64,000 nt of DNA, taken from the IMG/VR virus record IMGVR_UViG_2841260384_000002; one strand, written 5' to 3'. Position numbers and translations under genes: made by a program. This stretch comes from an uncultured virus (IMG/VR IMGVR_UViG_2841260384_000002) (Duplodnaviria; Heunggongvirae; Uroviricota; Caudoviricetes). The notes under the pieces are model-generated. The model worked only from the letters and a program-made list of their open reading frames with translations, made no database searches and was not told the origin of the DNA. Shown here piece by piece: positions 4,746 through 5,217 of this stretch; within the stretch, counting starts at the first letter, position 1, and each line of letters starts with the position of its first letter.

Positions 4746-5078
4746 TTAATAAGGGATTTCTTCGTCAATTTTAGAAATGGGCTTGCCTTCTAAACAAAGC
4801 AGCATCTGGATCTGGTCTTCCAGTAAGCTGGACTTCACTTGCGCATCAGCCAGTATTTTGTTTTGTTCTGCGCGTAAGGACTCAATCTCAGCATTCACTA
4901 ACTGTTCAGTACTTAGCTCTTGAAATGGAATTTCAACGGTATGCTCAGATACAACAAAACCTAAACCTGACTCCATATCGTATTTGAATGGGAGTGGTCG
5001 GTATCGATATGAACCGTCGAATTGCTTTTGTGCATGAATGCAAAGGGTGACACTTAGGGTTTTAGGTTGTGCTTTCAT
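4746..5078 (-). CDS. Hypothetical phage protein
   Basis: 110 aa, AAGGAG SD, coiled-coil C-terminus. Confidence 0.75.
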   Translation of the reverse strand: MKAQPKTLSVTLCIHAQKQFDGSYRYRPLPFKYDMESGLGFVVSEHTVEIPFQELSTEQLVNAEIESLRAEQNKILADAQVKSSLLEDQIQMLLCLEGKPISKIDEEIPY

Positions 5079-5095
5079 AGCAGCTCCTTTAAAAT
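5067..5095 (+). promoter_or_regulatory. Putative sigma70 promoter for antisense RNA
   Basis: TTGTGC (5067-5072), 17 bp, TAAAAT (5090-5095). Confidence 0.55.
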
Positions 5096-5101
5096 AACTG
5101 T

Positions 5102-5217
5102 GATCAGTGATTTATCATTGGTCTTGCCTCTTCTAGCGTTTGGTCGCGCTAGTAGAACTCTCGGTTAGCTTTGGTCGGCGACCCGAGGTAAAGGAACCCA
5201 CTTCGGTGGGTTTTTTT
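5102..5217 (+). ncRNA. Predicted antisense sRNA complementary to the repeated RBS motif
   Basis: CATTGGTCTTGCCTCTT at 5116-5132, two hairpins with TTGGTC loops, intrinsic terminator. Confidence 0.65.
5195..5217 (+). terminator. Intrinsic terminator
   Basis: AACCCAC-TTCG-GTGGGTT then T run. Confidence 0.85.

Follow-up and report, generated by a model that had tools for sequence, protein, structure and literature searches.

A prophage RNA of the IsrB lineage with a seed complementary to a start cassette shared by early phage genes

IsrB was described as a pair of identical RNAs of 88/94 nucleotides (nt), IsrB-1 and IsrB-2, which are encoded by the Salmonella prophages Gifsy-1 and Gifsy-2; it was seen by Northern blot as well as primer extension and is induced by starvation (PMC2330248). 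Its gene is flanked by sbcA and STM1010/STM2631, which are both encoded on the other strand, in the arrangement "<- -> <-", and the excerpts of the original description used here present IsrB as a cis-antisense RNA that overlaps its flanking genes (PMC2330248). Excerpts from two other papers report that IsrB is associated with ProQ, its role being unknown (PMC5391140), and that lysogens express it from Gifsy-2 (PMC7067206). Our literature searches on IsrB, ProQ, prophages and targets found no described IsrB target, mechanism or function. Here, we analyze a related element at positions 5102-5216 (+) of a 64,000-nt stretch of virus DNA (IMG/VR record IMGVR_UViG_2841260384_000002). We refer to this whole stretch as the window; according to a PHROGs scan, it carries a lambdoid Providencia prophage. 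The sbcA gene encodes a RecE-type exonuclease, so that the position and orientation of IsrB agree with those of the window element.

Two other groups of phage regulators are relevant to this locus. The c4 RNAs of P1/P7 and the CI RNA of P4 are antisense immunity RNAs, in which short complementary stretches occlude a ribosome-binding site (RBS) and small sequence differences in the RNA and its target set the specificity of immunity. In phage T4, the protein RegA alone shuts off many early mRNAs at their translation initiation regions. A possibly comparable pattern of sites comes from the mycobacteriophages of cluster K, where start-associated sequences (SAS/ESAS) lie immediately upstream of many start codons. 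Their function is unknown; they are sometimes preceded by an inverted repeat and are kept with particular gene families, and three cluster K genomes have a single SAS each on the complementary strand (excerpts of PMC3203893).

A structured RNA of the IsrB lineage

The plus strand of the window at 5102-5216 contains a real structured RNA gene of about 115 nt. A preliminary description of this DNA, made from its letters alone, had pointed out a promoter-like sequence (TTGTGC-17-TAAAAT), a seed, two hairpins with TTGGTC loops and a terminator with a UUCG loop. All of these parts lie where it had placed them (Table 1), and so do the G-U pairs 5139/5146 and 5170/5177. The small RNA (sRNA) appears to be transcribed from its own promoter, with a presumed start at 5102, and to end at its own intrinsic terminator. 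The putative promoter overlaps the start codon (5078-5076) and the Shine-Dalgarno (SD) sequence of the 110-amino-acid (aa) gene on the minus strand. In divergent homologues, a -10-like hexamer TAnAnT is conserved in position (TAAAAT, TATATT, TATACT, TATAAT) and its flanks vary; IsrB-type relatives carry TAGAAT at the equivalent -10 position.

Homologues were collected by a scan of 401 family genomes and a pattern scan of IMG/VR, which together gave 61 sequences, 42 of them distinct, with identities from 100% down to 73%. No match was obtained by blastn with the region 4700-5600 against INPHARED phages, and a blastn search of 5,426 E. coli genomes for the element was likewise negative. From 39 sequences aligned by MAFFT without fitting to any model, RNAalifold predicted 32 pairs, and 18 of these showed two-sided changes. 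We also built a covariance model, R1, and fitted an alignment of 41 sequences to it. In this second alignment, which is biased towards the structure of R1, 98.1% of the pair cells are canonical, compared with 28-47% if the partners are slid by 1-3 columns. Two-sided changes occur there at 21 of 33 pairs, whereas the shuffle mean is 12.1 and none of 500 shuffles reached 21. Covariation of the stems had been suggested as a check in the preliminary description, and it turned out positive and specific for the plus strand.

The two-sided changes affect 10 of 10 pairs of the H1 helix, including its outer extension, with a nearly invariant TTGGTC loop, and seven of nine pairs of H2, whose GCUUUGGUCGG aligns with the Rfam isrB consensus. 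The 5′ hairpin H0 comprises nine pairs, with 96.7% of cells paired. One of these pairs is U-G in 36 of the 41 sequences and another is G-U in 24, so this helix forms on the plus strand only. Within H0, GAUC.. pairs with ..GGUC, and two or three G-U pairs hide the CAUUGGUC half of the seed. A conserved GATC at the 5′ end of the RNA was considered as a Dam site and set aside, since it is the pairing partner of GGUC in this hairpin. The overall layout is common to every lineage examined: H0 with the 3′ arm (C)AUUGGUC, a linker UUNCCUC, two hairpins with UUGGUC loops, and the terminator.

The element could also be located through its neighbour. At 12 of 12 loci identified by relatives of the 110-aa protein (five in Providencia and seven in Xenorhabdus), it was found just upstream and antisense, with scores of 122-150 bits. 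The Xenorhabdus proteins are only 41-45% identical to that of the window, and the element is better conserved than this neighbouring protein.

According to the preliminary description, G-U pairs in the stems favour folding on the plus strand. This proved correct: in the helices of the fitted alignment, 154 cells are G-U and only 3 are A-C, which assigns the structure to the plus strand. Canonical cells make up 98.1% on the plus strand versus 86.8% on the minus strand, and the predicted fold energies are -52.2 kcal/mol (z -6.7) and -34.7 kcal/mol (z -4.1), respectively.

The strand bears on one alternative explanation, in which the function resides in the mRNA strand. Here, a phage RNA-binding protein, perhaps a RegA-like repressor or an antiterminator like N that uses boxB-like hairpins, would recognise GACCA(A) in hairpin loops and next to the SD sequence, and the plus-strand RNA would be secondary. 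Two hairpins with GACCAAA loops are indeed present on the minus strand of the element, and the RBS motif described below comes after them. At about 9114-9129, 10-15 nt upstream of the SD sequence of the gene that follows cII, there is also a small hairpin with a GC stem and the loop (C)UGACCA. The post-cII gene is preceded by it in 25 of 29 unique contexts, covering nearly all lineages; the background frequency of GACCA is 3.3% per 40 nt, and at the other targets an upstream GACCA is rare. In addition, TTGGTC/GACCAA is enriched in the window (49 copies versus 28.6 expected). The hairpin before the post-cII gene is complementary to the loops of the sRNA, yet it also resembles a boxB-type hairpin. 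Against a function of the mRNA strand stand the excess of G-U over A-C cells, the formation of H0 and of the terminator extension on the plus strand only, the strong U7 terminator facing the plus direction, and the transcription of the homologue IsrB in the plus-equivalent orientation. Moreover, neither a candidate RNA-binding protein nor an N-like gene was recognised in the PHROGs scan of the window. We therefore regard this explanation as quite improbable.

A scan of the whole window at the Rfam gathering thresholds gave no match to any family. The best Rfam match by E-value was RF01386 (isrB) at 5091-5216 (+), with 30.3 bits and an E-value of 5e-4; this is below the cut-off of 35, but the match spans the full model (1-87) with a 46-nt insertion. 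When 151 genomes were searched with the Rfam isrB model, seven loci in 6 genomes passed the cut-off, and a genome containing a 99% copy of the window locus (G001) gave no match. With R1, the seven canonical IsrB loci score 32-46 bits and show a 30-nt gap at the position of H1, which identifies IsrB as a short form. The window sRNA is a long-form member of the IsrB lineage. The preliminary description had not recognised the element as described. This holds for the long form, which is new; its kind, a prophage antisense sRNA related to the verified IsrB and sharing its position and orientation, is already known.

A transcript had been predicted for about 5102-5217. Among the Logan contigs of the RNA-seq run X1, which are unstranded, a discrete 115-nt contig corresponds to 5102-5216 without any difference at a depth of 85. 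The depth is 7.9 over 4771-5079 and 0 over 5229-5450, and coverage stops at 5216, so that the body is covered about 10-fold more deeply than its flanks. On the right, the contig extends exactly to the final T of the terminator tract, which fits a 3′ end on the plus strand. The raw-read run X21 had 0 reads on the stretch and was uninformative.

The start cassette and its co-variation with the RNA

The seed of the sRNA, CATTGGTCTTGCCTCTT, was noted previously as an exact complement, over 16-17 nt, of a motif at several gene starts. The complementarity stands; the seed as a whole is not free, however, since its 5′ half CAUUGGUC is predicted to be paired in H0. The remainder is the single-stranded linker, which contains the anti-SD stretch. 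In the window RNA, UUGCC of this linker has an unpaired probability of 0.8-0.9. For the equivalent 5-7 nt (UUGCC[UC], UUUCCUC or AUUCCUU), the value is 0.8-1.0 in all 7 lineages folded, window included.

The 16-mer AGAGGCAAGACCAATG is present in six exact copies in the window, compared with 0.47 expected, and none of 100 shuffles reached six. One copy is the element's own minus strand. Each of the other five ends in the ATG of an open reading frame (ORF), and together they cover the SD sequence and ATG of five other genes on both arms, just as the preliminary description had stated (Table 1). The exact match of the RNA to one start cassette on at least five early genes of both arms is new, and so is the long form with its anti-SD toehold. 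Partial copies lie at the start of a 57-aa ORF and near the excisionase gene. A further site, GACCAAAGCTAcAAGGCAAGACC in the presumed PL leader, is complementary over 11 nt to the H2 loop region and over 10 nt to the seed. This sequence resembles a condensed second copy of the mRNA-strand sequence of the element (H2 loop region plus seed); upstream of it, a promoter-like site at 5990-5961 (-), TTTACA-18-TATATT, may be PL.

In total, 246 exact motif sites were evaluated. Very short variable ORFs (MINH in 32 cases) follow 43 of them, which mostly represent the element's own copy, and the remaining sites belong mainly to the five target gene families, with 58, 43, 40, 30 and 13 sites. A leader peptide MINH on the minus strand was considered and rejected: the ORF is variable (MINH, MIAH, MTNH, MISIIDR and others), has 4-10 codons, and has lost its ATG in four lineages. 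There, in G196, G028, G288 and G022, the element's own copy of the motif is without ATG (CAACA, CAATA), which shows that this copy is not conserved as a gene start. At 11 loci found through the 110-aa protein, the motif was present at five of five RecE-like genes and at none of six other genes in that position. Three of the five RecE-like motifs are exact, one is changed at position -1, and one has two changes.

We examined the co-occurrence of motif and element in a sample of IMG/VR comprising 50 of 96 motif-bearing records, mostly the longer ones. Exactly one element (E at most 1e-6) was found in 49 of the 50, including all 32 records that are at least 90% complete, and the sole record without it is a 28%-complete fragment. 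The records contain 1-6 motif copies each (at most one mismatch), which follow the direction of the genes on either arm; the reversed control gave one match in total. Among the 401 family genomes, two or more exact 15-mers occur in eight, and these are the eight with a GCC-seed element, the copies lying within about 15 kb of it. Other 15-mer matches in these genomes amount to two singletons, versus six singletons for the reversed control. A relative that keeps the multi-copy motif without the element, proposed earlier as a counterexample to look for, was not found among the related phages and genomes examined.

For the analysis of co-variation, 40-kb regions around divergent elements were compared, and five seed types could be distinguished. 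In the window, as in G269, G286 and G204, the seed GGUCUUGCCUC is matched by the motif GAGGCAAGACC. G196 and G028 combine the seed GGUCUUUCCUC with the motif GAGGAAAGACC, present as GAGGAAAGACCAAC(A)ATG at 3-4 genes. In G188, the seed ..CUUUCCUAGC (CGGUCUUUCCUAGC) goes together with the motifs GCTAGGAAAGACC and CATAGGAAAGACC. The seed of G282 is UUGGUUAUUCC (UUGGUUAUUCCUU) and its motif GGAATAACCAA; two sites read GAGGAATAACCAATG and one reads GAGGAATGACCAATG. Finally, G288 and G022 carry the seed CCUCG and the motif CGAGG, (A/G)CGAGGCAAGACC.

In nine of ten seed-bearing regions, the exact 11-mer complement of the region's own seed occurs in 2-7 copies. G282 has one exact complement of its own seed, which may be the element's own copy, as the filter is imperfect. 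Regions with another seed contain no copy of this complement, except for GAGGAAAGACC once in G188, and four IsrB-type regions contain 0-1. Both the anti-SD seed and the shared start motif are missing from the short IsrB loci. Judged by these sequence comparisons, seed and motif change together, in about 4-5 independent lineages. This answers positively the question of whether seed and RBS co-vary in related prophages, which had been raised with the preliminary description. The lineage-specific co-variation of RNA and cassette and their strict co-occurrence are new. Sister phages already supply natural "compensatory mutants", for example in a second lineage with GCC changed to UCC.

These observations bear on two further alternatives. 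In the first, the RNA is a cis-antisense RNA only: it would act on the PL-operon transcript, upstream of the 110-aa and RecE-like genes, through its cleavage or termination or through transcriptional interference, and the other start matches would arise because the overlapped mRNA segment copies a repeated RBS cassette. The element does lie head-on inside the leftward operon, with its promoter overlapping the start of the 110-aa gene, and IsrB itself was described as cis-antisense, overlapping its flanking genes (PMC2330248, in the excerpts used). Phages with the short IsrB are without the shared RBS motif, which argues that the ancestral role was not this regulon and that cis-antisense action is probably ancestral. 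A purely cis-acting RNA, however, leaves three features unexplained: the invariance of a 15-16-nt motif, including the spacer from SD to ATG, at 3-5 unrelated genes per phage; the joint change of motif and seed in 4-5 lineages; and the retention of a single-stranded anti-SD linker in all seven lineages folded. We consider this alternative unlikely as a full account of the window RNA.

In the second, no trans factor is involved at all. The motif would be a "linker" at module junctions used in recombination, or an inherited optimal RBS cassette, and the RNA would do another job, for example with host targets or ProQ-associated functions. In agreement with this, the motif is found where modules that can be exchanged begin and accompanies specific gene families, the window and G001 cease to be homologous immediately behind the terminator, which shows mosaicism there, and IsrB is reported to be ProQ-associated with an unknown role (PMC5391140, in the excerpts used). 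On the other hand, 16 nt are short for homologous exchange, and a linker need not span exactly from SD to ATG. Nor would this view predict the exposed anti-SD linker, the lineage-specific changes of the seed, or the restriction of the multi-copy motif to element-bearing phages. Of all explanations weighed here, we give it the least credence.

Proposed mode of action and genomic surroundings

We consider it likely, on the basis of the sequence comparisons above, that the sRNA is a trans-acting translational repressor of several early phage genes. The free anti-SD linker would nucleate on GAGG(C)AA of the shared start motif AAGAGGCAAGACCAAUG. Pairing would then spread into H0, whose G-U-rich helix would be replaced by a perfect duplex of 16-17 bp over SD and AUG. 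According to the predictions, UUGCC(UC) is the sole accessible part of the seed, which makes this order, a toehold followed by the opening of H0, likely. The duplex would block ribosome binding and would probably expose the mRNA to double-strand-specific cleavage. The UUGGUC loops could add a second contact, for example with the GACCA hairpin before the post-cII gene. The proposed regulon comprises the RecE-like exonuclease, 55-aa, 74-aa, 112-aa and HNH-like genes; weaker candidates are the 57-aa gene, the site near xis and the PL leader.

By this means, the RNA could restrain recombination and, via coupling or polarity, also replication and late-gene activation: two targets lie directly before the replication initiator gene and Q, so that repression could spread to these by coupling or polarity. 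Such a role would matter when CI leaks in a lysogen, or when a phage that shares the motif enters the cell. Because the entire RNA is perfectly complementary to the PL transcript, firing of PL could soak up the sRNA; it could also collide with sRNA synthesis. From this, a broader idea may be put forward tentatively, and we rate it as possible rather than probable: the RNA could form a second immunity system with its own specificity code, in which the RNA of the lysogen silences its own leaky and incoming same-motif early transcripts, lineages escape by joint change of seed and motif (GCC, UCC, UAGG and UUAUU types), and PL firing releases the repression. If repression in trans is true, an RNA layer of superinfection immunity and lysogeny stability would be suggested for Providencia, Xenorhabdus and relatives. 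The prediction is that the exposed anti-SD stretch of one RNA matches the start cassette of genes gating recombination, replication and late transcription.

Several points weigh against repression in trans or against parts of the transcript model. The -35 sequence TTGTGC has only three of six consensus matches, and a consensus promoter scan did not list the site. The X1 contigs are unstranded, and the 5′ end is inferred rather than mapped. The contig start at 5102 is not evidence for a transcription start, because a two-allele bubble is located at 5099/5101, and X1 also contains allele contigs covering 5050-5131 (depth 30) and 5066-5131 (depth 53); the abundant RNA, or a second species, may begin upstream of 5102. 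Half of the seed, CAUUGGUC, is not free, as described above. The co-occurrence in IMG/VR is partly circular, since the element contains the motif, and the counts are not independent, because the phages are kin and the motif travels with gene families. Co-variation rests on only about 4-5 lineages and would also be expected if the minus-strand copy in the element were a member of a repeat family kept uniform for some different reason. In G282, the three sites outside the element share a 13-nt core only, with 2-3 mismatches over the 17-mer and one over the 11-mer. The short IsrB form works, whatever its role, without a regulon.

In a ranking of all 275 ORF starts by duplex energy (RNA.duplexfold), the starts 1973, 9153 and 13444 were the top three, but 4733 and 15344 were not among the 15 best listed, so that the targets were not cleanly separated. 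We did not use this ranking, as it allows very long internal loops, with a background median of -25 and a 5th percentile of -35 kcal/mol.

Table 1. Coordinates of the RNA, the start motifs and other features of the window
Feature	Position	Strand	Remarks
Integrase gene	1-1134	-	PHROGs; followed by excisionase (start 1363, -)
Partial motif GAGGCAAGACC	1392-1402	-	about 28 nt upstream of excisionase start (1363)
Motif at start of 55-aa gene	1971-1986	-	gene 1806-1973, phrog_2482
Mu Gam-like gene			between excisionase and RecE-like gene (PHROGs gene order)
RecE-like exonuclease gene, 668 aa	2727-4733	-	phrog_2489
Motif at start of RecE-like exonuclease gene	4731-4746	-	gene 2727-4733
110-aa gene	4746-5078	-	between RecE-like gene and sRNA element
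Putative sigma-70 promoter	5067-5095	+	-35 TTGTGC 5067-5072, 17-nt spacer, -10 TAAAAT 5090-5095
sRNA body, IsrB-family long form	5102-5216	+	covariance model R1, 149.6 bits; presumed 5′ end; antisense to leftward early (PL-side) operon; followed by variable region
Hairpin H0	5102-5123	+	GAUCAGUGA / UCAUUGGUC, loop UUUA; 3′ arm is 5′ half of seed
Seed CATTGGTCTTGCCTCTT	5116-5132	+	complement of start motif
Single-stranded linker UUGCCUCUU	5124-5132	+	anti-SD stretch, proposed toehold
Hairpin H1	5133-5152	+	CTAGCG/CGCTAG, loop UUGGUC; missing from short IsrB
Hairpin H2	5160-5187	+	internal loop, loop UUGGUC; common to IsrB
Intrinsic terminator	5190-5216	+	AAAGGAACCCAC-UUCG-GUGGGUUUUUUU; CCCAC-TTCG-GTGGG, then T7, end 5216
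79-aa gene	5314-5553	+	phrog_20080
GACCAAAGCTAcAAGGCAAGACC, presumed PL leader	5768-5795	-	upstream of 70-aa ORF 5519-5731
385-aa "endonuclease" gene	6397-7554	-	phrog_4225
CI repressor gene	7564-8256	-	PHROGs; Cro, then CII beyond
Motif at start of 74-aa gene	9140-9155	+	gene 9153-9377, phrog_2465; between cII and O-like gene
74-aa, O-like initiator, DnaC-like and DnaB-like genes			after CII, in that order (PHROGs)
Partial motif GAGGCAAGACCATG at start of 57-aa ORF	12190-12203	+	ORF 12201-12374
Motif at start of 112-aa gene	13431-13446	+	gene 13444-13782, phrog_536, annotated "transcriptional regulator"
Motif at start of 104-aa HNH/Ref-like gene	15331-15346	+	gene 15344-15658, phrog_1588; immediately upstream of Q
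nin-region genes, then Q, then lysis genes	Q: 15693-16244		PHROGs

The nearest genome, G001, holds its 99% copy over 4700-5222, and the homology ends at 5222, just past the terminator; a break at this very place indicates mosaicism at that point. About 8 nt behind the U tract (ACGTCTGT-like) are kept even in distant lineages. The 79-aa gene beyond is encoded on the strand opposite the operon and looks like an inserted moron. The 385-aa "endonuclease" gene directly follows the CI gene in the same orientation and may be a defence gene expressed in the lysogen, since this is the position where lambda carries rexAB. In the nin region, a PAPS-reductase-like gene (14469-15332, +; phrog_33262) lies between NinB and the motif-bearing HNH-like gene.

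Two further observations concern individual target starts. R1 gives a weak match at 1955-2065 (+), with 20.8 bits and an E-value of 0.0045, opposite the motif at 1971; it probably reflects the seed match only, and a palindrome, GTGACATGTCAC, adjoins it. At the RecE-like start, two independent RNA libraries contain short deep contigs that lie just upstream of the motif or reach into it: 4690-4728 in X1 (depth 100, with 4-13 nearby) and 4689-4742 in a further run, X2 (depth 38.8). In the latter, adapter sequence follows directly after 4742, so that this fragment ends inside the motif. The depth peak at 4689-4742 may have arisen by processing of the proposed duplex, or it may be an artefact.

Comparison with described systems

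The closest described RNA is IsrB. As in Salmonella, the window RNA is a prophage sRNA opposite both of its neighbours and adjoins a recE/sbcA exonuclease gene; the GCUUUGGUCGG hairpin, the terminator CCCRCUUCGGYGGG-U and a -10 box in the equivalent place are shared as well. The window RNA differs by its length of about 115 nt instead of 88/94 nt, as it adds H1 and the anti-SD linker to the two-hairpin body of IsrB, by its score under the Rfam cut-off, and by the shared RBS motif, which IsrB-type phages are without. The "IsrB" of E. coli (AzuCR) is another RNA altogether, and literature searches with the letters of the motif returned only unrelated papers on GPX4 siRNA. If repression in trans is true, it would provide a testable function for IsrB, an orphan RNA since 2008.

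Among immunity RNAs, the setting of specificity by small sequence differences in c4 of P1/P7 and CI of P4 parallels the lineage-specific pairs of seed and motif found here. Both are processed from a transcript that carries their one or few targets. In contrast, the window RNA lies opposite its operon, has its own -10 box and terminator, and matches at least five dispersed genes on both arms. In the Rfam scans of the window, no match was found to the c4 or P4 CI families or to DicF. P22 Sar and lambda OOP are likewise small antisense RNAs with their own promoter and an intrinsic terminator, but each acts on a single overlapping gene, and neither is known to have a repeated motif in trans. DicF of the Qin prophage resembles the RNA proposed here in that it pairs in trans with several mRNAs, in or close to their start regions. 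It differs in being processed from an operon and in pairing imperfectly with host targets, whereas in the window the match is perfect over 16-17 nt and concerns the phage's own early genes.

The shut-off of many early mRNAs by one factor has its precedent in T4 RegA, which, however, is a protein and recognises loosely related AU-rich sites, while here the factor would be an RNA and the shared site is exact. If repression in trans is true, translational repressors such as the protein RegA would gain a counterpart made of RNA. Under the broader immunity idea, the target genes of the window would be the first phage regulon in which a single RNA reads one identical ribosome-binding cassette.

Start-associated sequences of cluster K mycobacteriophages differ from the cassette in sequence and host, and no complementary RNA is reported for them in the excerpts used (PMC3203893). 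By analogy to the window, where one copy of the motif belongs to the sRNA gene itself, the single SAS copy on the complementary strand might mark an antisense RNA. Repression by the window RNA, if true, would explain why unrelated phage genes carry identical ribosome sites, a puzzle that the lambdoid cassette shares with SAS.

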